Source of the DNA: Acidobacteriota bacterium
GTDB taxonomy: Bacteria > Acidobacteriota > Vicinamibacteria > Marinacidobacterales > Marinacidobacteraceae
Reading direction: 5' to 3'
Assembly (NCBI GenBank): GCA_022826195.1
Contig: JAJDVI010000076.1
Location: 85,971 to 149,970 of the forward strand
Length of the DNA: 64,000 nucleotides
Shown piece by piece: positions 1 through 37,783 of the stretch. Numbering within the stretch: position 1 is the first letter of the stretch; each line of letters begins with the position of its first letter. The position numbers and the translations under genes are program-made. The notes below the pieces were generated by a model. It was not told where the DNA came from, searched no databases, and worked only from the letters and a program-made list of their open reading frames with translations.

Positions 1-534
1 TATATCCTCGCCGAGGAGCGCTCGGAACTGCTCGTCGTCGACCAGCACGCCGCGGATGAACGGGTCCTCTTCAACCGGCTGATGGACCTGTCGAGCGAGA
101 CGCGGACCCAGGAACTCCTGCAGCCGGTGCCGCTCGAACTCTCGCCCGTGGAGCGGGCGGCGCTCGCGGAGGAGCACGAGCGCCTGGCCGCTGCCGGCTT
201 CGACATCGAACCCTTCGGGGGGGACGCGTGGATCCTCCGCGGCGTGCCGGAAGCGCTGGGAGTGGGCCGCGGGCTGGACGTGCTCATGCGCTCGCTCGCT
301 TCCGAAGAGAGCGAGTGCACGGCCGCCGCCGTCCACGACGCCCGCGCCCGGATCATGGCGCGGGTCGCCTGCCATGCCGCGGTGACCGCCGGGGTCACCC
401 TCACGACCGAGCGGATGAACGAGGTGCTGGCCTCGCTCTGGGGAACGGAGAATCCCTCGACCTGCCCGCACGGCCGCCCCACGGTGCTGCGCCTCGATCT
501 GCCCTTAATCGAACGGCGTTTCGGACGGACCTGA
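1..534 (+). CDS. mutL: DNA mismatch repair protein MutL, C-terminal endonuclease domain (5' partial)
   Basis: Frame 1 open from window edge; DQHAADERV (DQHAx2Ex4E), CHAAV and CPHGRP motifs of MutL_C. Confidence 0.95.
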   Translation, partial: YILAEERSELLVVDQHAADERVLFNRLMDLSSETRTQELLQPVPLELSPVERAALAEEHERLAAAGFDIEPFGGDAWILRGVPEALGVGRGLDVLMRSLASEESECTAAAVHDARARIMARVACHAAVTAGVTLTTERMNEVLASLWGTENPSTCPHGRPTVLRLDLPLIERRFGRT

Positions 535-535
535 C

Positions 536-775
536 ATGACCGCCGCACCGAAGCGCCGCCGGGAGCCGCTGCCCACCGCGGTGACGCTCGCCTGGATTCG
601 TTACTTCGCCGGCCGGACCCTGATGATGGCGGGAATGCTGGTGGTGACCGGCGCGGCCGCGCTCTTTTTCGGCGCGGACGCCGAGCGGCGGATGCTCGTG
701 TTCACGGGGGCGGGAGCGGCGCTCTTCGTTACCGGATGGCTGCTCTCGAAGAAGCGGCCACCCGAGGCGCGCTGA
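536..775 (+). CDS. Small two-TM membrane protein, hypothetical
   Basis: 79 aa ORF starting 1 nt after the mutL stop; two hydrophobic segments. Confidence 0.6.
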   Translation: MTAAPKRRREPLPTAVTLAWIRYFAGRTLMMAGMLVVTGAAALFFGADAERRMLVFTGAGAALFVTGWLLSKKRPPEAR

Positions 776-30494: not shown

Positions 30495-32681
30495 ATGCAT
30501 CGGGCGCGTCTGGCGGTAGCGGTCCTCCTTGTCCTGAGTTGCGCCGCGTCCGCGTCCGCCTTCACCGGCAGGGTGGTCCTCGAAAGCGGCGAGCCGGCGC
30601 CCGGAGCGATCGTCCAGATTCTCGGGCACCCCGGGTCCGCGGTGACCGACAGCGAGGGCCGCTTCGAGTGGCTGCCCGACCCGGCGCCCCCGTTCCACGT
30701 GCTGGTCGTGCTTCCCGGAGACCGGTACACCACGCCCGTCTTCGTCGAGTCCTTCGACGCGGAAGAACTGCAGATCCGGGTGGAGGCCCTGGCCCTTCAC
30801 GAGAGCGTCACGATCACCAGCGGCGCGGTGCCGCACACGGAAGCGACGCCGGGAAACGCTCCGGCCGTCATCTCCGGGGAGGCGATTCGTGTGCGGCAGG
30901 CGCCACGGCTCACCGATGTGCTCGAAGCGGTGCCCGGAGGAAGCCGCGGCAGCGACCTGCACGCGGGCGTTCCCTCGATCCGCGGCCTCTCGCGCGGAAG
31001 AACGGTGCTCCTTCTCGACGGAGCCCGGGTTACCTCGGAACGGCGGGCCGGCGCCAGCGCGTCCTTCCTGGATCCGTTCTTCCTCGAGACCGTGGAGGTG
31101 GTGCGCGGTCCCTCCTCGGTGTCGTACGGCTCCGACGCGTTCGGCGGAGTCATCCACGCCCGCACCCGCCGGCCGATACCCGGCGGTCCCGTCGGAGCGC
31201 GGGCCCGCGGAACCCTGGGAGCCGGTCTTCCGGAGGCCAGTTTCGGGGCGGAAGTCCAGGGGTCCGCTCTGGGCACCGGATTCCTGGCCCAGGCGCGGCG
31301 ACGGGTCTTCGCCGACTATTCGAGTCCCGAGGGGACGGTCGAAGGCTCGGGCGCCGAGGACTACGGGGTGCTGCTCCGGGCCGCGAGAGGCCTCGGCGGG
31401 GGATACCTGGGAGTGGCCCTGCAATACGACGCCGGACGGAACGTCGGACGGCCGCGACGGTCTCCGGCCACTACGTCCTATCCCGATGAAGACTCCCTCC
31501 GGCTGGTCACCGACTACCAGTTCGCGCCCCGCTGGGGATTCGCGCGGCTGGACACCACTGCCTTTGTCGGGGCGCATCGACTGGTGACCCGGCGGGAGGC
31601 GACCGGCGAAACGGCCGACTCCGAGGTTGCCGCGCACGACTTCATGTTGCGCGGGCGCGGCATCCGGCCGTTCGGCGATGGCCGCCTCGAACTGGGAACC
31701 GAGTTCCTCAGCCGGTTCGGGATCTACTCGGAGACCCGGGGCGGACCGGACAATCCGGTCCTGATGGCCACGGCGCGCCGCTCGGGGCTGGATGGCGCCC
31801 TGCGCCGGGAAGCGTCGTTCTACGGCCACGCCGAGACCCCACTGGCCCCACGGCTTGCCGGGAGCGCCGGAGCCCGCGTTTCCGCGGTGGCGACGCAGTC
31901 GGGGCTGGTGGTCGATCGCCGGGAACGTCAAACCACCAGTCACGGCGCGCTGAGCGGGTTTCTCGCGCTGCGCGCCGACCTGTGGCGCGGGGTGGCCCTT
32001 ACCGGCCAGCTCTCGCGGGGCTTCCGCGACCCGACGCTTTCCGACCGCTACTACGCCGGCCTGAGCGGGCGCGGGATCGTGTTCGGGAATCCCGATCTGG
32101 ATCCCGAACGGTCGCTCCAGTCAGACCTCTCGCTTCGCTACGACGGCGATGGGGTCCACGGCGGCCTCTACGCCTATCGCTACCGGATCTCCGACCTCAT
32201 CGAGCGCCATGAGGAAGGAGCAGACCTGTACTTCTTCAGGAACCGGGGAGAGGCGATCCTTTCCGGCCTCGAGTTCGAGGTCCAGGTCGGAACCCCGAAC
32301 GCCCCGTTCCTGCTGGACCTTTCGGCCGGTCTCACGCACGGCGTGGCCGACGGCGGCGCCGCTCTCGACGGGGTGCCTCCCGCCAACTTCCGCGCGGGCC
32401 TGCGCCGCCGCCTGCCGGCGCAGAGCTTTGCCGAGGTCGTACTGCTGGCCTTCGCCGCGGACCGCGACCCCGGACCGACCGAAGCCGCGATGGACGCCTA
32501 CGCGCGGCTCGATGCCGCTCTCGGGTTCCCCCTGAGCGGCGGCGCGGAACTGCGCTTCTCCGGCCGCAACCTCCTGAACGCCGCGTACCCGATCAGCGCC
32601 GACTCCCGCGCCGTCCTGGCTCCGGGGAGGAGTCTGGTCGGCACCATCGTCTGGAACCTGGGGACGTCGTCGGGGCCGTAG
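30495..32681 (+). CDS. TonB-dependent outer-membrane receptor
   Basis: Signal peptide; carboxypeptidase-like N-domain; SIRGL, VEVVRGPSS..YGSDAFGGVI plug; NPDLDPERS; GRNLLN. Confidence 0.9.
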   Translation: MHRARLAVAVLLVLSCAASASAFTGRVVLESGEPAPGAIVQILGHPGSAVTDSEGRFEWLPDPAPPFHVLVVLPGDRYTTPVFVESFDAEELQIRVEALALHESVTITSGAVPHTEATPGNAPAVISGEAIRVRQAPRLTDVLEAVPGGSRGSDLHAGVPSIRGLSRGRTVLLLDGARVTSERRAGASASFLDPFFLETVEVVRGPSSVSYGSDAFGGVIHARTRRPIPGGPVGARARGTLGAGLPEASFGAEVQGSALGTGFLAQARRRVFADYSSPEGTVEGSGAEDYGVLLRAARGLGGGYLGVALQYDAGRNVGRPRRSPATTSYPDEDSLRLVTDYQFAPRWGFARLDTTAFVGAHRLVTRREATGETADSEVAAHDFMLRGRGIRPFGDGRLELGTEFLSRFGIYSETRGGPDNPVLMATARRSGLDGALRREASFYGHAETPLAPRLAGSAGARVSAVATQSGLVVDRRERQTTSHGALSGFLALRADLWRGVALTGQLSRGFRDPTLSDRYYAGLSGRGIVFGNPDLDPERSLQSDLSLRYDGDGVHGGLYAYRYRISDLIERHEEGADLYFFRNRGEAILSGLEFEVQVGTPNAPFLLDLSAGLTHGVADGGAALDGVPPANFRAGLRRRLPAQSFAEVVLLAFAADRDPGPTEAAMDAYARLDAALGFPLSGGAELRFSGRNLLNAAYPISADSRAVLAPGRSLVGTIVWNLGTSSGP

Positions 32682-33244
32682 CGGGCTGGAGCTACGGTGG
32701 CGGCCCCTTCGCCGCTGGCGGACCGCCGGCGGCTTGCGGCAACAGGGTGGCGCCGGGAGGTTTCCGGCCTCGCGGTTCCACCCGATCGGGCATGGGCGGG
32801 CAAGGGACACGGATGTCCCGGCAGTGTGGACTCGTTGTCCTGTCCGGGGGTCGCCACCCTGCGGCAGTGGCGCATGACCGCGGGACGCTGTAGTCCGAGG
32901 TGACACTTTCTGGAACATGCGGTGACGCGCAAACGTAACCGCAACCAGACTTCCTGCGCCAAACATTGGCCAAAACCGCGACAACTACGGATCGCCGCGT
33001 TGTCGTGGAGATCCCGGTGTTCCTGACACTCGTACGTGACCGATGGTCATTACTGTCGTTACAGTCAGATTTCATGGACATTCTGCGGTTTGGGACTGTG
33101 TGAACCGGCGTCCCGCTGTGAAACAATGCAAGTACGTCGTACGCAGGAAGAAATCATCTTTGTCCGCATGCGGGATGCGGTCGTTCCATGGGATATGTGA
33201 CAGGTGGGATTGACACATGTTTACGTTGAGATGAGGAAGGGACC

Positions 33245-34942
33245 ATGAATCTCACAGTTTCCGAGTTGGCGGTCGCCGTAGGCAAACAGGAAAACTACGT
33301 TCGTCAACACATACACCGGCGCCACCTGGCGGTTCGACGACAGGGCCGCAGTGTTTCGGTTCCGCTTGACGAGGCGGTGAAGTGGGCGGGAACACGGGGG
33401 CTTCCGTTTGTTCCGCCCAAGCGCATCAGCTTGACGTTCCTCGATCAGGGGGAAAGGATCGGACGGCTTACCGTCCTCGCTTGGCGCCCACCAGGCCGGG
33501 TGGCGCGAAACCTGTTCACCCTGATGCGTCATCGGAAGCGCGAGGCCCTCGGACCGTGGTCCAGCGAACCCGATGCAACGTGGACGCTGGAGGAGCTCGG
33601 CGACGACCTGAGCCTCCTGTCCTTCAACGCTTCGTACGAGGAATGCCGCAAACGCGTCGACAGCATCCTCGCGTCGGGGGTACTGGAGGCCAACGGACAG
33701 GAAGTTCATTACGCCCTCGAAGACAACCCGAGGAACCACTGGGCCTACCGCGACTACCGGCGCCGGTCGGAGATGTCCATACGCAGCCCGTTCTCCATGC
33801 ACAGCGCCGCGATTACCGAATACTGGAGTTTCGAGGACGAACCGCACAAACGATGGTTGTCGCTGTCGGATCCGCTTGCCGGACGATGGCGCGGGGCGCT
33901 TCGCCGGCTTGGCTTTCCGCTCGACCGATGTCCGGAGCGGGTCGGCAACCTCCTTGTCGCTGCCGCCGAAGACGCGATCACGTGTCGACTCAGCGCACAT
34001 CACGACCGGACCCTTCGGCTTCATGTCGAAGCGAAGGGACTCCTCCCCGAGACGTATCGCGCGACCGTGTGGGCAAGTCACAGCGGCGACGAAGTGCTCC
34101 GCAGGGAAGTGCCCGTCATTCCCGGACAGACGACGATCGAGCTGGTCTCCGAGGTGGACCGCACCGGCTTCGCCGTCTGCCGCGACTTCGACGGGCAGTA
34201 CGTGGACCTGGTGGAGAACCTTCCCGGGTTGGAGGCGGTCTCCCCGGGCCAGCGGGACGACGATCCGCTGCGACGGGGTCCGGACCCCATCGCCCGCGTT
34301 CCACAGCGGGTCCATCCGTCCCGCCCGGCCGCCGCCGGCTCGGGACGCTTTGGACCGACCGCCCGGCTCGATCGGGGTATCCGGCAGCAGTGGCTCCACC
34401 GGGTGGCGCGGCAGCGGGAGGCCGGCGCCCGCCGGGACGCCAACCTGGTGCGCTTCGGCCCCGGACGGTTCGCGGAGGCGGCGCGGCATTTCCTCGATCT
34501 CTTTTCGCACGAGGCCGACCGCCCGGGGCCGATCTATCTTGCCGATCCGTGCTTTGTCGGTCACACGATGGCGGATCCGGTAGCCCAGCTCTTTGTGGAC
34601 ATATGTACAGCGATTCGGGGCAAGCCTCTGCGGATTCTGTGCGCGGAGCGCGAACCGGGCGACGCTCCGGCCTGGTGGAGCCGCTACCTGCGAAAGATCC
34701 AGGCCGACGTGACCGTGCGGACTTTCGTGAATCGATCGGACGAGCGGGGGTGCTTTCACGACCGTTACCTGATCACTCCCGCACGCGAGGTCCTGATGAC
34801 GAATTCGTTCAACGGATGGAATCGGTTCGGCGTGACCTTCGTGAGTCTTCCCTACGGGGTCTACCGCGCGGAAGCGGAGCAGTTGTGGGCCCTGGATCGG
34901 GACACGCCCGCCTCGGACGTGCTCGTCCGCGAGATCTCCTGA
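33245..34942 (+). CDS. N-terminal HTH + C-terminal variant PLD-like (DP..HDR..NS) domain; putative nuclease
   Basis: LTVSELAVAVGKQENYVRQHI winged-HTH-like start; IYLADPCF, FHDRYLI, MTNSFNG; GAGG SD; more A/T-ending codons. Confidence 0.6.
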   Translation: MNLTVSELAVAVGKQENYVRQHIHRRHLAVRRQGRSVSVPLDEAVKWAGTRGLPFVPPKRISLTFLDQGERIGRLTVLAWRPPGRVARNLFTLMRHRKREALGPWSSEPDATWTLEELGDDLSLLSFNASYEECRKRVDSILASGVLEANGQEVHYALEDNPRNHWAYRDYRRRSEMSIRSPFSMHSAAITEYWSFEDEPHKRWLSLSDPLAGRWRGALRRLGFPLDRCPERVGNLLVAAAEDAITCRLSAHHDRTLRLHVEAKGLLPETYRATVWASHSGDEVLRREVPVIPGQTTIELVSEVDRTGFAVCRDFDGQYVDLVENLPGLEAVSPGQRDDDPLRRGPDPIARVPQRVHPSRPAAAGSGRFGPTARLDRGIRQQWLHRVARQREAGARRDANLVRFGPGRFAEAARHFLDLFSHEADRPGPIYLADPCFVGHTMADPVAQLFVDICTAIRGKPLRILCAEREPGDAPAWWSRYLRKIQADVTVRTFVNRSDERGCFHDRYLITPAREVLMTNSFNGWNRFGVTFVSLPYGVYRAEAEQLWALDRDTPASDVLVREIS

Positions 34943-37083
34943 TGCCGGCGAAACCGGGCGGCGATGTCTCCCTGTCACCCGAGGCCCGCGAGACCGTCTG
35001 GCGGATCTTCGGCGCCGGAGCGGCGCCGGGGGCGAGGGTGTCGGTCTTCGACAACATCGAACCGATGATCCGCAGGCACGTGGCGCCGGCCGACCAGGAC
35101 CGGGCGATCGCAACGATCGGCGACTGGTTCGAATCGGGCGCCCACGTCCGGTGGCTGAAGCCGGATCGCGCCGAGCTGGTCGCCGATCTGGTGATCGAGG
35201 GGGTCGGTCCCCGGCGCTCCGAAGACGCGGTCTGGGCGATCGGATCGGTCGGGCTCGATCTGTCGGCGGCCAGGATCAAGCGGCGTTGGGCCGCGGGAGA
35301 GATCCGGACCCTGGTGGACGCGGCGGTGAACGCTCTGAACCGGGTCGAGGCTCGGGTGCGGCACGACGATCGGTCCACCGGTCTGGAGAACGCGGAGTCC
35401 ACCAGCTTCCGGGGAGCCGTATCCCGGGACGGGGTGGTGGCCGCATTCGCGCGGCTCGAAGAAGAAAGCCTCGAACTGGTGAATCAGGGACTCCATCCGA
35501 CGGTGGGCAATCTGATCGATCTCGCGGTGGAGCTTTCCCCGGGGCAGGCTCCCGGGCTTGTCTCGAGACTCGAGGCGCCGACCATGCAGGCCAGGGCGGC
35601 GCGGCGCCTGGCGGCCCGGACGCCGGCTCACGATCCGGGTGCGATCGCGGGATGGATCACGGAGCGGTCCGCCGAACCGGTCATCGCGCTGGCCATCGTG
35701 CATGTCCTGGGCGCGGCGCGGAAACTGGACGACGGTCGGGCCCCGCGGCGGGACCCTTCCGGCGCCCCCGCGGGGAAGCGGGATCCCGGCGAAGCGCTGG
35801 AACATCCCCCGGATGCGGTCGGGAACCCGGTTCTCCGACTCCTGGAGCGCCTGGCCGGCCTGGAACCGGCGGACTGCCTGCGGTGGATCGGCGAGCTGCT
35901 GAATCAGGCTTCGCGGGCCTGGTCGGTGCCGGGCGGTGGACAAAAGCCCGGGCTCCTGACCCGAATCGAGGACGAGAGCACGGCCTTGGCCGCGAGGCTC
36001 TTTTGCGAGTCCGAATCCGCGCACCTGCTCGCGCATTTCCAGTCGGGGCTGCTGCCCGGCCGGGGAAGGCACTGGGTCCGCCACCAGATGGCGATTGCCC
36101 GGGAAATCCGCGAATCCGCTCCGGCACGGGCGGAGGAACTCGCGCGGGCCACCCTCGATGAACATCGCCGACAGTTGGCGGAACAGCGAGACGGCCACTA
36201 CCTGGCGCCCGACTGGGCCTCCTGGACGGACCGGGAATGGCTCGAGGGCCTGGGAGCGGCCCTCGCCCTGGCGCGCAAGGACCTGGATCTGCGGGCCTGG
36301 GTCGCCGACGAGTGCCGGGACCTTCCGCTGAGCGTCTGGGACGCCGAGGAGGACCCCGAGGGGTTCGCGACGGCGGAGCAGATGGCCCAGCATTGGTTCC
36401 TGGTCGCGCTCCTCGCGATTCCGCAACGGCGCGAGTTCAGCCGGCCGCTCGAGCCTCCCGTGGTTCGCGCTCTCGCGGAGGCGGTCTGGGCTCACTGCAG
36501 GTTCTGCCGGCAGCACCTCCAGACGCATCCGGAAGCGTCGGTTGCCGCCGAGCTGGCGGCGCGCTACGCGATGCAGTACGGGCGAGGCAACGATCAGTGG
36601 CTGCTCGACCAGGCGCGGGGGGAAGGGGTGGGTCCCGGAGCCCTCCGGGTGTTGCTGGAACAGCGGCGATCCTCGAGTCAGCCGCTGGTCGAGGACGGTT
36701 CCGATCTCGACGACATGATCGTGGCGGAACTGGTGCGGATCGCGCTGGGCCGGTTTGACGATGGCGGCCAGTTCGACCTGGAGGCCCTTCGGGACTGGGG
36801 AAAGCTGTGGCTCTCGCTGGGCGCGGTGGACCAGGCAGAAAGGACGGCCCTGGCCATTGTCAGTTTCCCGTTGCGCTCCGCCGATCGGAAGGCGCGCATC
36901 CTGGCGCTCAAGCTGCTTGGATTGGTCGTCCGGCACCGCAAGCCGCGCCACGGCGTGGCGGAGTACGTGGTGCCGCTCTACAACCAGCTCTGGCCCGTCT
37001 TCGCCGTCACCCCGAACCGGGAAAGGAAAGACCGCGAGGAAATCGAAAAGGCCTTCGTCGGGTCGGACCTCATCCCCGGGTAG
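34942..37083 (+). CDS. Hypothetical 713-aa predicted helical protein
   Basis: TGATG coupling; protein-like composition; no recognisable motif. Confidence 0.7.
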   Translation: MPAKPGGDVSLSPEARETVWRIFGAGAAPGARVSVFDNIEPMIRRHVAPADQDRAIATIGDWFESGAHVRWLKPDRAELVADLVIEGVGPRRSEDAVWAIGSVGLDLSAARIKRRWAAGEIRTLVDAAVNALNRVEARVRHDDRSTGLENAESTSFRGAVSRDGVVAAFARLEEESLELVNQGLHPTVGNLIDLAVELSPGQAPGLVSRLEAPTMQARAARRLAARTPAHDPGAIAGWITERSAEPVIALAIVHVLGAARKLDDGRAPRRDPSGAPAGKRDPGEALEHPPDAVGNPVLRLLERLAGLEPADCLRWIGELLNQASRAWSVPGGGQKPGLLTRIEDESTALAARLFCESESAHLLAHFQSGLLPGRGRHWVRHQMAIAREIRESAPARAEELARATLDEHRRQLAEQRDGHYLAPDWASWTDREWLEGLGAALALARKDLDLRAWVADECRDLPLSVWDAEEDPEGFATAEQMAQHWFLVALLAIPQRREFSRPLEPPVVRALAEAVWAHCRFCRQHLQTHPEASVAAELAARYAMQYGRGNDQWLLDQARGEGVGPGALRVLLEQRRSSSQPLVEDGSDLDDMIVAELVRIALGRFDDGGQFDLEALRDWGKLWLSLGAVDQAERTALAIVSFPLRSADRKARILALKLLGLVVRHRKPRHGVAEYVVPLYNQLWPVFAVTPNRERKDREEIEKAFVGSDLIPG

Positions 37084-37168
37084 GGCCGGATCCGGCGTCC
37101 GGTCTACCGCGATCCGGGCAGGGAGATCCTCGACCCAAGCTCGTACCATGGCGCGGCGACAGGCGGAC

Positions 37169-37783
37169 ATGACGAAACCCGCGGACGAAGCGACCGGCCA
37201 CCGGGAACGCATGCGGACGCTCCAGTCGGAGGTCCGAAGGAAGCGCGCGGCGGCGAGTGATCCGGGCCGCGGGCTCGTGCTGGTCCATACCGGGGACGGG
37301 AAGGGCAAGTCCAGTTCCGCCTTCGGCGTGATCGCGCGCGGGCTCGGCTGGGGCTGGAGGGTCGCCGTGGTTCAGTTCATCAAGGGGGAGTGGAAGACCG
37401 GCGAGCGCCAGTTCTTCGAGCGCTTCCCGGACCAGGTCGTCTGGCGCGCCATGGGCGAAGGGTTCACCTGGGACACCCAGGACCGCGCCCGGGACGTCGA
37501 GGTGGCGTCCGGCGCGCTCGCCGCCGCTCGGGAGATGCTGTCGTCCGGAGACTTCGAACTCGTCGTCCTCGACGAGATCAACGTCGTGATGAGCTACGGC
37601 TACCTGGAAACGGGGGCGGTTCTGCAGGCGCTTCAGGCACGCGCGTCCTCGACGAACGTGATCCTGACGGGCCGCGGCGCCGGCGACGAAGTCATCGCCT
37701 ACGCCGATCTCGTCACCGAGATGCGCGAGGTGAAACACCCCTTCACCGCGGGGATCCGGGCCCAGCGCGGCATCGACTACTGA
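37169..37783 (+). CDS. cobO: Cob(I)yrinic acid a,c-diamide adenosyltransferase
   Basis: VHTGDGKGKSSSAFG, VQFIKG, GEGFTW, VLDEIN, LTGRGA, ADLVTEM..VKHPF, AQRGIDY. Confidence 0.95.
   Translation: MTKPADEATGHRERMRTLQSEVRRKRAAASDPGRGLVLVHTGDGKGKSSSAFGVIARGLGWGWRVAVVQFIKGEWKTGERQFFERFPDQVVWRAMGEGFTWDTQDRARDVEVASGALAAAREMLSSGDFELVVLDEINVVMSYGYLETGAVLQALQARASSTNVILTGRGAGDEVIAYADLVTEMREVKHPFTAGIRAQRGIDY

Follow-up and report, generated by a model that had tools for sequence, protein, structure and literature searches.

Introduction

Enzymes of the PLD family form covalent phosphohistidine intermediates, and those with a single HKD motif dimerise to give one active site. TrmBL2 is a non-catalytic DNA-binding protein and, to our knowledge, the C-terminal domains of TrmB proteins have no catalytic residues, their roles being in ligand binding or chromatin. 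A C-terminal domain carried by a STAND NTPase is an architecture typical of immune ATPases. Among restriction or defence nucleases, BfiI, NgoAVII, SauUSI and END-PaCF1 belong to the PLD superfamily (PMC12191111).

Here we analyse ORF1 and ORF2, two genes found in a 64,000-nucleotide stretch of Acidobacteriota DNA (hereafter the window). We see about an even chance that they form an autoregulated conflict cassette, made of an effector and a sensor or inhibitor, and serving either in defence against mobile elements or as a closely related addiction module.

Results

Two coupled genes between a TonB receptor gene and cobO

The features of the locus are collected in Table 1. An initial annotation of this DNA had reported a coupled ORF pair between a TonB receptor gene and cobO, and this arrangement was confirmed, with the TGATG overlap in place. 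ORF1 and ORF2 have 464 and 235 homologue clusters respectively, of constant length, and dN/dS in the window's clade ranges from 0.10 to 0.19 for ORF1 and from 0.17 to 0.31 for ORF2. They are therefore genuine genes rather than chance ORFs, and both are under purifying selection. The ORF2 frame can be extended to a GTG, which would give 1233 aa; this longer form was rejected as a high-GC artefact, and the N-termini of ORF2 homologues align at the ATG in position 34942. Similarly, a 630-aa antisense ORF (33221..35113) is an artefact of high GC.

Table 1. Coordinates of the features of the locus, in window positions
Feature	Position	Strand	Remarks
TonB-dependent receptor gene, upstream neighbour	30495..32681		Plug E 1e-20, barrel E 1e-31
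Conserved AT-richer upstream region, part of the cassette	32897..33244	+	promoter and putative operator region
Ribosome-binding site GAGGAAGG	33234-33241	+	4-11 nt 5' of the ORF1 ATG
ORF1	33245..34942	+	ATG start, 565 aa; multidomain protein with HTH and PLD-like domain
Putative excisionase/MerR-type helix-turn-helix (HTH), ORF1 residues 1-50	33245..33394	+	pLDDT 86-91
Two beta-rich domains, ORF1 residues ~70-325	33452..34219	+	AF2 secondary structure
Disordered Pro/Arg/Gly-rich linker, then long helix, ORF1 residues 327-397	34223..34435	+	
Predicted PLD-fold domain, ORF1 residues 398-565	34436..34939	+	structure matches and motifs; pLDDT 76-92
Motif IYLADPCF	34532-34555	+	invariant YxADPxF
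Motif H505-D-R507	34757-34765	+	within peptide FHDRYLITP, 34754-34780
Motif S521-x-N523	34805-34813	+	within peptide TNSFNGW, 34799-34819
Stop/start overlap TGATG	34940..34944	+	ORF1 TGA overlapped by ORF2 ATG; translational coupling
ORF2	34942..37083	+	713 aa; ATG start at 34942; predicted all-alpha solenoid partner
ORF2 motif LPLSVWDAEE	36322-36351	+	most conserved ORF2 motif
CobO gene (cobO), downstream neighbour	37148..37783		PF02572, E 1e-62

Neither protein matched Pfam at the gathering score, PHROGs, any PDB sequence, or PADLOC-DB v2.0.0 at E values up to 1. The pair had been said to match no defence system that could be named, and the failure of the PADLOC models for both proteins agrees with this.

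N-terminal and central domains of ORF1

The score of ORF1 against HTH_17 (E 0.0056, 17.4 bits) did not reach the curated cut-off of 27 bits, and that against TIGR01764 was 13.1 bits (E 0.094) for a cut-off of 28.8 bits. Homologues P0040, P0082, P0106 and P0310 carry PF12728 matches, and HTH proteins of BFVD superpose on the ORF1 N-terminus at about 1 Å rmsd. Homologues and structure support an HTH at the start of ORF1, and the sub-threshold scores point to the excisionase/MerR-like type that had been proposed.

Conservation across the family peaks in the first of the two beta-rich domains, where N89, T92, R163, S181-P-F183, E192 and W194 are invariant even in a distant subfamily. The beta domains gave FN3/Ig-like matches in Foldseek, and no match in a PDB sequence search. 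In the linker, pLDDT falls to 23-28 over residues 327-375. The long helix, which spans residues 371-397 in the AF2 model, may mediate dimerisation.

A variant PLD-like domain at the C-terminus of ORF1

The peptides from which a PLD-like domain had been deduced (IYLADPCF, HDR and the NSFNG region) are present in the ORF1 translation. YxADPxF, H-[DN]-R and S-x-N are retained across all subfamilies, in what we take to be the element order of PLDc_2-type domains. ORF1 of the window reads H505-D-R507-YLIT-P512-AREVLMTN-S521-F-N523, and so departs from the canonical HxK(x)4D(x)6G[ST]xN: Arg stands in for Lys and Pro for Asp, and the distance from His to Ser is 16 instead of 15. A canonical HKD motif was therefore not borne out; the non-HKD variant is invariant across the ORF1 family.

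The AF2 model was submitted to Foldseek as the whole ORF1 chain, so that the matches are not localised to residues 398-565. TrmBL2 was the best match in the PDB (5box, prob 1.0, E 4e-5). PssA of E. coli was matched as well (8yr6 with prob 1.0 and 8yr5 with prob 0.99, at an rmsd of about 6.7), and so was a PLD phosphodiesterase of Terrestrivirus (prob 1.0; rmsd of 5.4 over 147 columns). Whole-chain TM-scores were low (0.16-0.19), because the ORF1 model has several domains. The Pfam PLD-family models (PLDc, PLDc_2 and related) did not match the isolated domain at E up to 10, nor the full ORF1 at E up to 1. Searching the PDB sequences with a domain profile gave no match either. Given the structural matches in two libraries and the motif, the C-terminus of ORF1 is predicted to adopt a PLD-type fold and to bear one copy of a variant motif, which sustains the single-copy fold first proposed. 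Two further resemblances that had been suggested were not reproduced: MIT_C had no Pfam match in full ORF1 or in residues 398-565, and for the VPA1262 family an NCBIfam scan at E up to 1 gave TIGR01764 only. The literature mentioning VPA1262, as examined, holds no family definition.

Both the departure from HKD together with the absence of a PLD-family HMM match, and the non-catalytic nature of the best structural match, TrmBL2, count against a conflict cassette. This last match invites a different reading, in which ORF1 is a TrmB-like transcription factor, i.e. a non-catalytic regulator of ORF2 made of HTH, helix and ligand-sensing PLD-fold domain, and ORF2 its cargo, a eukaryote-like helical-repeat host-association protein laterally shared among sponge symbionts. 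TrmBL2, the top match, is an archaeal chromatin/regulator protein, the main clade is nearly restricted to apparently sponge-derived genomes, and the pair resides stably in the chromosome in the window's clade. Moreover, sponge symbionts are reported to have eukaryote-like repeat proteins and to undergo lateral transfer (PMC8163846). However, H-D-R and S-x-N stand at the canonical PLD catalytic positions in all subfamilies, the distant subfamily keeps the pair without the HTH, the PLD-like domain also occurs standalone or fused to a STAND protein, and members exist where names do not suggest sponges. Pfam TrmB models, including Regulator_TrmB, fail on ORF1, in which some 300 residues of beta domains are inserted, and ORF2 has generic fold matches and no visible signal-peptide-like stretch. 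We consider this reading quite improbable.

Other carriers of the domain speak for the conflict cassette. Among 1.84 billion, only 74 cluster representatives match the ORF1 C-terminal domain. Besides standalone versions, it forms the C-terminal end of P0313, a STAND NTPase of 1631 aa (hhalign prob 95%, E 2.7e-8), which suggests an effector role for the domain. At one locus (L054), an in-frame stop is combined with a change of HDR to HAR, so that loss of the motif accompanies decay.

ORF2 is a predicted helical partner

The AF2 model of ORF2 is all-helical (36 helices, pLDDT 84.9, pTM 0.81) and its structure search returned generic HEAT/TPR matches only, as expected from the earlier description of a helical 713-aa protein devoid of catalytic motif. 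No family and no PDB sequence matched it, homology to the helical part of P0313 was not detectable, and no hydrophobic signal-peptide-like stretch was visible by eye at its N-terminus. ORF2 is strongly conserved over 700 residues, and within its most conserved motif SVWD(A/L)EE is kept in a Bacteriovoracia pair of 21% identity. We propose that ORF2 may be a sensor, a scaffold or an inhibitor.

The upstream region and its palindromes

The initial annotation had placed about 560 bp of AT-richer non-coding DNA before ORF1. The gap from the TonB receptor gene is indeed 563 bp long, but its AT-richer part is limited to the last ~350 nt. GC dips to 0.55-0.58 around 32800-33400, compared to about 0.71 in the flanks. 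In 10 genomes of the clade, 32897-33244 is conserved in blocks, and the preceding 32682-32896 (~210 nt) is GC-rich and variable. The conserved segment contains repeated GTGAC/GTTAC/GTACG motifs; no sigma-70 consensus site was found in it.

Upstream of the cassette in other lineages, TGTAAnTTACA-type palindromes were found. The density of palindromes of the form GTA.-N1-3-.TAC is 7.2 per kb within 120 nt upstream, versus 0.058 per kb elsewhere, and 31 were observed upstream versus 1.9 ± 1.4 in shuffles. TTACA is present upstream in 28 of 36 loci, versus 3.5% of background windows. An operator-like palindrome is thus present at the promoter in most lineages of the cassette, as autoregulation through the HTH, put forward at the outset, would lead one to expect. 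The strict palindrome is absent upstream of the window's own copy of the cassette, so that autoregulation at this locus is proposed by analogy. In the distant subfamily the HTH is missing while the rest of the protein and the pair are kept, which fits a regulatory role of the HTH.

Strict pairing, and transfer as a unit

ORF2 was found downstream of ORF1 in 61 of the 61 loci that could be checked, i.e. those where the DNA extends far enough past ORF1. This holds down to 21% identity, at the Bacteriovoracia locus L063, and with one exception the ORF2 match starts no more than about 55 nt from where ORF1 ends. Distant ORF1 relatives have overlapping downstream genes as well. The suggestion that homologues stay paired was upheld, the module being autonomous and strictly paired. 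Genomes contain one copy, at most two, and decayed copies occur occasionally.

The cassette is found in at least eight bacterial phyla, and most of the genomes that carry it look sponge-associated. The main clade is almost confined to genomes with sponge-suggestive isolate names, from which we presume a sponge origin; members are also found in contigs or genomes whose names do not suggest sponges. Between lineages, blastn homology is limited to about 65-150 nt upstream and the two genes, as for instance between a gammaproteobacterium and an alphaproteobacterium (86%). Because the homology ends at the edges of the cassette, the latter appears to move between lineages as a unit.

Such sharp edges would also be expected if the pair served to mobilise a small transposable element, one protein being a PLD-fold enzyme that cleaves and rejoins DNA and the other an accessory protein. 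The HTH resembles the excisionase type, and phosphohistidine chemistry could in principle support strand transfer. Against this, terminal inverted or direct repeats were not found around the pair, there are at most two copies per genome, the locus is fixed in 13 species-level genomes, and the pair is usually carried by other mobile elements, which are equipped with integrases or transposases of their own. We hold this explanation to be very remote.

The neighbours speak for a conflict cassette. Two unrelated lineages have the pair within a type I R-M operon. Elsewhere it adjoins AbiEi/AbiEii and a TIR protein, sits among transposases and toxin-antitoxin genes, or has a large serine recombinase at its side. 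Transposases, integrases, resolvases, AbiEii and R-M are the families most often met as neighbours. PADLOC models match many of the 140 nearest neighbours. This is context and not a formal enrichment: the counts are raw, and genomes of sponge symbionts are reported to be enriched in R-M, toxin-antitoxin and CRISPR genes (PMC8163846). Outside the window's clade the neighbourhoods look like defence islands, as had been anticipated, or like mobile islands; within it there are no such neighbours.

The same evidence can be read as a large addiction module of the toxin-antitoxin type that plays no part in phage defence. The toxin would be ORF1, acting as a PLD-fold nuclease, and ORF2 would neutralise it, or the other way round; the HTH would give the conditional autoregulation usual in such modules, and the cassette would persist because its loss kills the cell. 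Overlapping genes in strict pairing, operator-like palindromes over the promoter, propagation as a unit of only two genes, frequent location beside other toxin-antitoxin pairs and on mobile elements, decayed copies now and then, and long retention at a chromosomal site without defence neighbours are all in keeping with it. However, the components of type II toxin-antitoxin systems are typically several times smaller than either protein, the DNA-binding domain is on the putative toxin and not on its partner, conservation of ORF2 over 700 residues exceeds what simple neutralisation needs, and the occurrence of the PLD-like domain fused to a STAND NTPase suggests regulated immune effectors. We regard an addiction module of this kind as unlikely, and it overlaps with the conflict cassette that we prefer, because many toxin-antitoxin modules also counter phage.

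An old resident in the window's clade

In 13 species-level genomes of the window's Vicinamibacteria clade, the pair occupies one locus, MFS-TonB-[pair]-cobO, among cobalamin genes and with no defence neighbours. The divergence of the cassette within the clade is similar to that of the flanking genes. Three sister-lineage genomes do not have the pair after the TonB gene, which means that the cassette was gained at some point. We conclude that it was gained once, at the synteny break after the TonB receptor gene, then inherited vertically, and that it is an old resident of this lineage and not a recent arrival. Of the horizontal acquisition proposed in the initial annotation, a single old gain is retained; conserved presence of the pair at this locus across the lineage is an outcome that the annotation had itself named as refuting its reading. 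Stable inheritance at one locus without defence neighbours is unusual for a defence system, and counts against the conflict cassette.

Discussion

If the pair is a conflict cassette, it could work as follows. ORF1 would dimerise, probably via its long helix, and two single PLD-fold domains would form one active site with His505, Arg507 and Asn523, making the dimer a phosphodiesterase, most likely a nuclease. The N-terminal HTH would bind the palindromic operators over its own promoter and keep expression low, and translational coupling would provide ORF2 in a fixed ratio to ORF1. The alpha-solenoid of ORF2 would bind ORF1, and either sense the invader or keep the enzyme inactive until triggered. 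We infer in this way catalysis, its substrate, dimerisation, the ORF1-ORF2 complex, the binding of the HTH to the operator and a protective phenotype; the functional case for the cassette is one of association. An undescribed immune system, laterally shared across much of a host-associated (apparently sponge) microbiome, with a new HxR branch of the PLD fold under the control of a dedicated alpha-solenoid sensor, and fixed chromosomally in one lineage, over a divergence that reaches about one synonymous substitution per site, is conceivable, at a little under an even chance.

A working defence or addiction module would bring a new effector type, a single-copy PLD-fold domain with His-Asp-Arg, and, in ORF2, a new class of partner without known relatives. 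It would also mean that one small cassette is common to at least eight phyla, apparently in the same animal host, and would give a direct handle on lateral transfer within host-associated microbiomes. The conserved operator palindrome makes the regulatory model immediately testable. Should the cassette have no defensive role, the fact that a single chromosomal site has kept it for so long still needs explaining.

Compared to TrmB and TrmBL2, which consist of a winged HTH, a coiled coil and a PLD-fold C-terminal domain, ORF1 follows the same general plan, in which a long helix accompanies a DNA-binding domain and an alpha/beta domain, but it differs by the invariant His/Arg/Asn, by about 300 extra beta-domain residues between HTH and helix, by a coupled partner gene, and by the failure of Pfam TrmB models. 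Autoregulated type II toxin-antitoxin and Abi pairs (e.g. AbiE) resemble the cassette with its two overlapping genes, its operator-like palindromes over the promoter, its carriage in what look like mobile and defence islands, and its stable chromosomal copies now and then. In contrast, the cassette proteins are 565 and 713 aa long, no PADLOC toxin-antitoxin or Abi model matches them, and it is the putative enzyme that carries the DNA-binding domain. With PLD nucleases (Nuc, BfiI, NgoAVII, SauUSI, END-PaCF1), ORF1 has in common a predicted PLD-type fold next to separate DNA-binding or sensor domains, and the His, the basic residue and Ser-x-Asn in canonical order. Its motif is nevertheless H-D-R...S-x-N and not HxK(x)4D(x)6GSxN, it has no PLDc HMM match, and its domain is C-terminal, whereas theirs is N-terminal (PMC12191111). 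The cassette has no consistently adjacent methyltransferase, and has an obligatory helical partner of 700 aa. Finally, as regards antiviral NTPases of the STAND/Avs type, with their helical sensors and terminal effector domains, the cassette contains no NTPase, and the proposed sensor and effector are separate proteins; yet the C-terminal domain of ORF1 ends P0313, a P-loop protein (NPHP3_N/AAA_16) that is helical over a long stretch, and the association of a helical-repeat sensor with an effector is the one that we propose for ORF2 and ORF1.

Gene structure at the locus

The two coupled ORFs, their TGATG overlap, the TonB and cobO flanks and the AT-richer gap described in the initial annotation were all reproduced from the sequence; the peptides it quoted were found in the window, with positions verified by translation. 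A ribosome-binding site, GAGGAAGG, lies 5′ of ORF1, and the gap upstream of ORF1 measures 563 bp, with a GC content of 0.55-0.58 against ~0.71 in the flanks. ORF1 has 464 homologue clusters (560-585 aa) and ORF2 has 235 (705-740 aa), all highly constant in length, under the sole names "hypothetical protein" and "helix-turn-helix domain-containing protein". Judged from sequence, both are real, conserved, unnamed genes. Two longer frames, the 1233-aa extended version of the ORF2 frame (homologue N-termini start at the 34942 ATG) and a 630-aa antisense ORF, were discarded as artefacts of the high GC content.

A promoter scan found no consensus promoter, and no terminator was predicted 3′ of ORF2, so that transcription from the cassette may continue into cobO. 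A transposon function would call for flanking inverted or direct repeats; none were found around the pair, and we regard this reading as very improbable.

Coordinates of the features in the window, in ORF1 (residues) and in the compared loci
Feature	Sequence	Position	Strand	Remarks
TonB-dependent receptor gene	window	30495..32681		upstream of pair
ORF1	window	33245..34942	+	ATG start, 565 aa
ORF1/ORF2 overlap	window	34940-34944	+	TGATG, from sequence
ORF2	window	34942..37083	+	713 aa
CobO gene	window	37148..37783		downstream of pair
HTH	ORF1	1-50		AF2 model
Two beta-rich domains	ORF1	~70-200 and 235-325		AF2 model
Linker	ORF1	327-375		disordered, Pro/Arg/Gly-rich; AF2 model
Long helix	ORF1	371-397		AF2 model
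Alpha/beta domain	ORF1	398-565		AF2 model
Cobalamin genes	L001	1537-6251, 15713-19524		cobO-cbiZ-cobD with ABC transporter, cbiM, cobW
Cassette in type I R-M	L004	3908-21234		Thiotrichales
Tandem repeat	L010	8743-9372		201-nt unit
btuF/btuC	L015	14862-17482		after cobO
cobT-cobS-cobC	L018	13931-16187		inserted ahead of cobO
Decayed ORF1	L054	10001-11545		in-frame stop, HDR to HAR
Cassette in type I R-M	L066	5338-19661		Nitrospirales
cbiX	L067	15485-16009		
P0313	L068	1842-6737		1631 aa

Neither ORF matched Pfam, PADLOC or PHROGs. NCBIfam gave a weak excisionase HTH in ORF1 and nothing else, and the separate ORF1 domains, run against family libraries, gave a weak HTH and no further match. Searches of PDB sequences with profiles of the PLD-like domain, beta domain 1 and ORF2 yielded chance hits or none. 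The suspected likeness to VPA1262 proteins was not borne out, with no HMM match for either ORF; the view that no nameable defence system matches was upheld by the PADLOC scan of both proteins. Literature searches found no description of the pair. As far as these comparisons reach, the cassette belongs to no named family tested.

ORF1 ends in a domain with a predicted PLD fold

The ORF1 model (pLDDT 74) had TrmBL2 as its top PDB match in a whole-model Foldseek search (E 4e-5, prob 1.0), and HTH proteins among viral models fit onto it at ~1 Å. A TrmB-like regulator with host-association cargo is the alternative on which this match bears, and one we consider quite unlikely. The same PDB search gave prob 1.0 for a PLD-superfamily enzyme too, the phosphatidylserine synthase of E. 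coli, and the search of viral models gave it for a "PLD phosphodiesterase domain" protein (rmsd 5.4 Å, 147 columns).

Two conserved stretches mark the C-terminal domain. The first, I-Y-L-A-D-P-x-F followed by a helix and "PLRILC", we take to be the strand-helix-strand start of PLDc_2-type domains; the second reads F-H-D-R-Y-L-I-T-P...T-x-S-x-N-G-W. In the main ORF1 family the His, Asp, Arg, Ser, Gly and Trp of the motifs are invariant and the Asn nearly so; distant subfamilies retain His, Arg and Ser-x-Asn, with Asp replaced by Asn in some. Compared with the HKD signature, however, ORF1 has Arg for Lys, Pro for the structural Asp, and a spacing longer by one residue, and PLD HMMs gave no match to ORF1 at E up to 10. 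Of the PLD claim in the initial annotation, the fold is thus supported by the modelled structure and the single variant motif by the sequences, and membership of the PLD family is not.

A profile of this alpha/beta domain retrieved only 74 cluster representatives among 1.84 billion (E up to 0.001). Full-length matches are ~470-577 aa long and mostly carry the domain at the C-terminus, like ORF1; many of the remaining ones are short fragments. Exceptions to this layout are P0300 and P0307, ~220-aa proteins with the PLD-like domain, and P0313, where an NPHP3_N/AAA_16 P-loop and a long helical region precede a C-terminal PLD-like domain (hhalign prob 95%, E 2.7e-8). The layout of P0313 is that of STAND-type immune ATPases, which argues for the PLD-like domain as a putative effector. 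P0313 comes from an AT-rich organism represented by short contigs.

ORF2 is a helical partner that stays with ORF1

As expected from the initial annotation, ORF2 is helical: its model is a confident solenoid of 36 helices (pLDDT 85, pTM 0.81), matched in structure by generic HEAT/TPR proteins alone (importin-13, Ctr9, Ski3). No homology was found between ORF2 and the helical part of P0313.

Homologues also stay paired, an ORF2 homologue lying 3′ of ORF1 on the same strand in 61 of the 61 loci with sufficient DNA; in all but one of them the ORF2 match begins within ~55 nt of the ORF1 end. Pairing is kept at 21% identity in a Bacteriovoracia locus, whose 693-aa partner retains the SVWD(A/L)EE motif. 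The downstream gene also overlaps in distant relatives of ORF1 without the HTH, one of which is a firm ORF1 homologue (hhalign prob 98.5%). The 598-aa partner of that homologue is collinear with ORF2 over 418 columns, and since the hhalign prob is just 22%, this homology is only suggestive.

Some copies are damaged. In addition to the decayed ORF1 of L054, that of L031 appears frameshifted, the extracted reading frame of L032 has two internal stops, and in L059, L060 and L062 ORF1 is truncated while ORF2 remains. Others are doubled: OZ250156.1 carries one intact copy and one whose ORF1 is split by a ~1.5 kb insert (L047 and L050), MPMW01 bin61 carries copies that share only 83% and 44% identity with the ORF1 of the window (L011 and L041), and one Gammaproteobacteria bin has two copies (L056 and L058).

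Palindromes upstream of ORF1

Of 36 non-redundant loci, 28 have TTACA/TGTAA within the 90 nt that precede ORF1; among background windows the share is 3.5%. As a rule, a TTGACA box is directly followed by 2-3 TGTAAnTTACA-like palindromes; L048 and L052 are among the loci with such repeats. In 4.3 kb of sequence upstream of ORF1 the pattern GTA.-N1-3-.TAC has 31 occurrences (7.2 per kb), compared to 0.058 per kb elsewhere in the loci and 1.9 ± 1.4 occurrences in shuffles. Such palindromes are the footprint expected of HTH autoregulation, and would be the binding sites of ORF1. The strict palindrome is absent upstream of the pair in the window's clade, where a conserved ~350-nt block with GTGAC/GTTAC/GTACG repeats is found. 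In a single genome of the clade (L010), 3.1 copies of a tandem repeat (96% matches) fill the GC-rich, variable sequence that separates the TonB stop from this block.

Distribution and transfer of the cassette

With one genome scanned per species, 57 loci came to light, every one in metagenome-assembled genomes. Carriers are Acidobacteriota (Vicinamibacteria), Latescibacterota, Nitrospirota, Gemmatimonadota, Alpha- and Gammaproteobacteria, Spirochaetia, Binatia and Chloroflexota (Caldilineaceae, Dehalococcoidia), with Bacteroidota and Nitrospinota on short contigs only. Many isolate names (SB06xx, RHO, bin61, long-read symbiosis-project records) are, we presume, suggestive of marine sponge microbiomes, to which the main clade seems confined; the distant subfamilies occur in contigs or genomes without such names. 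Over 20 kb, L021 shares 91% identity with a Latescibacterota chromosome although its label is Gemmatimonadetes, and the comparisons L021/L025 and L001/L019 put Gemmatimonadetes- and Dadabacteria-labelled bins at 91-93% identity over 17-20 kb to such chromosomes. Because of this identity, some of the labels given to short-read bins are probably in error, which inflates any count of phyla that relies on them. The count was therefore taken from chromosome-scale records, which place the cassette in at least 8 phyla.

Between loci, blastn homology runs from 65-150 nt upstream of ORF1 to the ORF2 end or just past it, and the flanks are unrelated. Cassette-limited homology reached 92% (L053/L054), 87% (L022/L023) and 80% (L004/L030); a Gammaproteobacterium and a Rhodobacterales genome share 86% over 2.5 kb inside the two genes. 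From these boundaries we infer that the unit of transfer is the cassette, which has neither an integrase of its own nor terminal repeats.

An old acquisition in the window's lineage

The order MFS-TonB-pair-cobO was found in 13 species-level genomes (L007-L018, L061), with ORF1 76-98% identical to the window copy and flanking genes similarly diverged. In this clade, where dS reaches ~1, dN/dS was 0.10-0.19 for ORF1, 0.17-0.31 for ORF2 and 0.06-0.29 for flanking genes. Three sister-lineage genomes (L072-L074) were located via their TonB receptors, closely related to that of the window at 61-69% identity; upstream synteny holds to the receptor gene, then come unrelated genes, without the pair and without cobO. 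The break point lies directly 3′ of the TonB gene, and because the three genomes keep synteny up to it and lack the pair after it, the pair was gained once at the break and retained since. Horizontal acquisition, proposed in the initial annotation, stands as a gain; a recent acquisition is not supported, as the pair occupies the same locus in the 13 clade genomes, the conserved presence which that annotation itself had counted against it. The sister genomes read peptidase S9, beta-lactamase/M15, HEAT_2, SSF, MFS, TonB up to the break, and L073 encodes, a few kb beyond it, a BglII-type endonuclease along with an MT-A70 methylase.

Next to cobO, two clade genomes carry further cobalamin genes (L018 and L015, see table). 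In all, three unrelated lineages have cobalamin genes close to the cassette, with further examples in L001 and L067. This proximity may be coincidence or a common insertion hotspot. A direct riboswitch link from cobalamin to the cassette was rejected because the window yielded no Rfam family at all, not even a cobalamin riboswitch.

Mobile and defence neighbourhoods outside the clade

The pair sits inside type I R-M operons in Thiotrichales and Nitrospirales genomes, the latter adjoining an integrase. There the cassette lies between hsdM/hsdS and hsdR, beside Fic, nucleotidyltransferase/HEPN-type, and MazE or M78 peptidase/DUF4411 genes; this suggests two independent insertions into sites of one kind. 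The Thiotrichales and Nitrospirales copies are lower in GC. Elsewhere the pair is flanked by AbiEi/AbiEii and a TIR protein or sits amid transposases and antitoxins, and the HTH-less relative P0309 and its partner adjoin a large serine recombinase and a ParB-methylase. PIN/MazE pairs adjoin the cassette in some loci; that the cassette is itself a pure addiction module we find rather unlikely.

Among 342 proteins at most 5 kb from the pair in 43 loci, Pfam assigned DDE_Tnp_1 (11), DDE_5 (10), Phage_integrase (9), AbiEii (6), Resolvase, ResIII and N6_Mtase (5 each), MmeI_Mtase and NikA (3 each) and TIR (2), as raw counts without matched background. The top family thus accounts for at most 11 of the 342 proteins, and there is no fixed third gene. 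Recurrent PADLOC matches in the 140 nearest neighbours were type IIG R-M, MADS and DISARM methylases, HEC-01A, NsnB, OLD/AriA/GajA and AbiEii. These neighbourhoods back a conflict role, in a supportive rather than conclusive way, because these are raw counts and because sponge symbionts are reported to be generally enriched in defence genes of the R-M, CRISPR and toxin-antitoxin kinds (PMC8163846).

A putative two-component conflict cassette is the best fit to the evidence, and we hold it with even confidence. ORF1 would be the effector, a dimeric, single-domain PLD-fold phosphodiesterase, whose HTH would repress the cassette's own promoter; ORF2 would be a stoichiometric solenoid partner, either sensing the trigger or restraining the enzyme. 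In its working, such a cassette would be closest to modular PLD nucleases that act in restriction and defence, and likewise to sensor-effector immune pairs.
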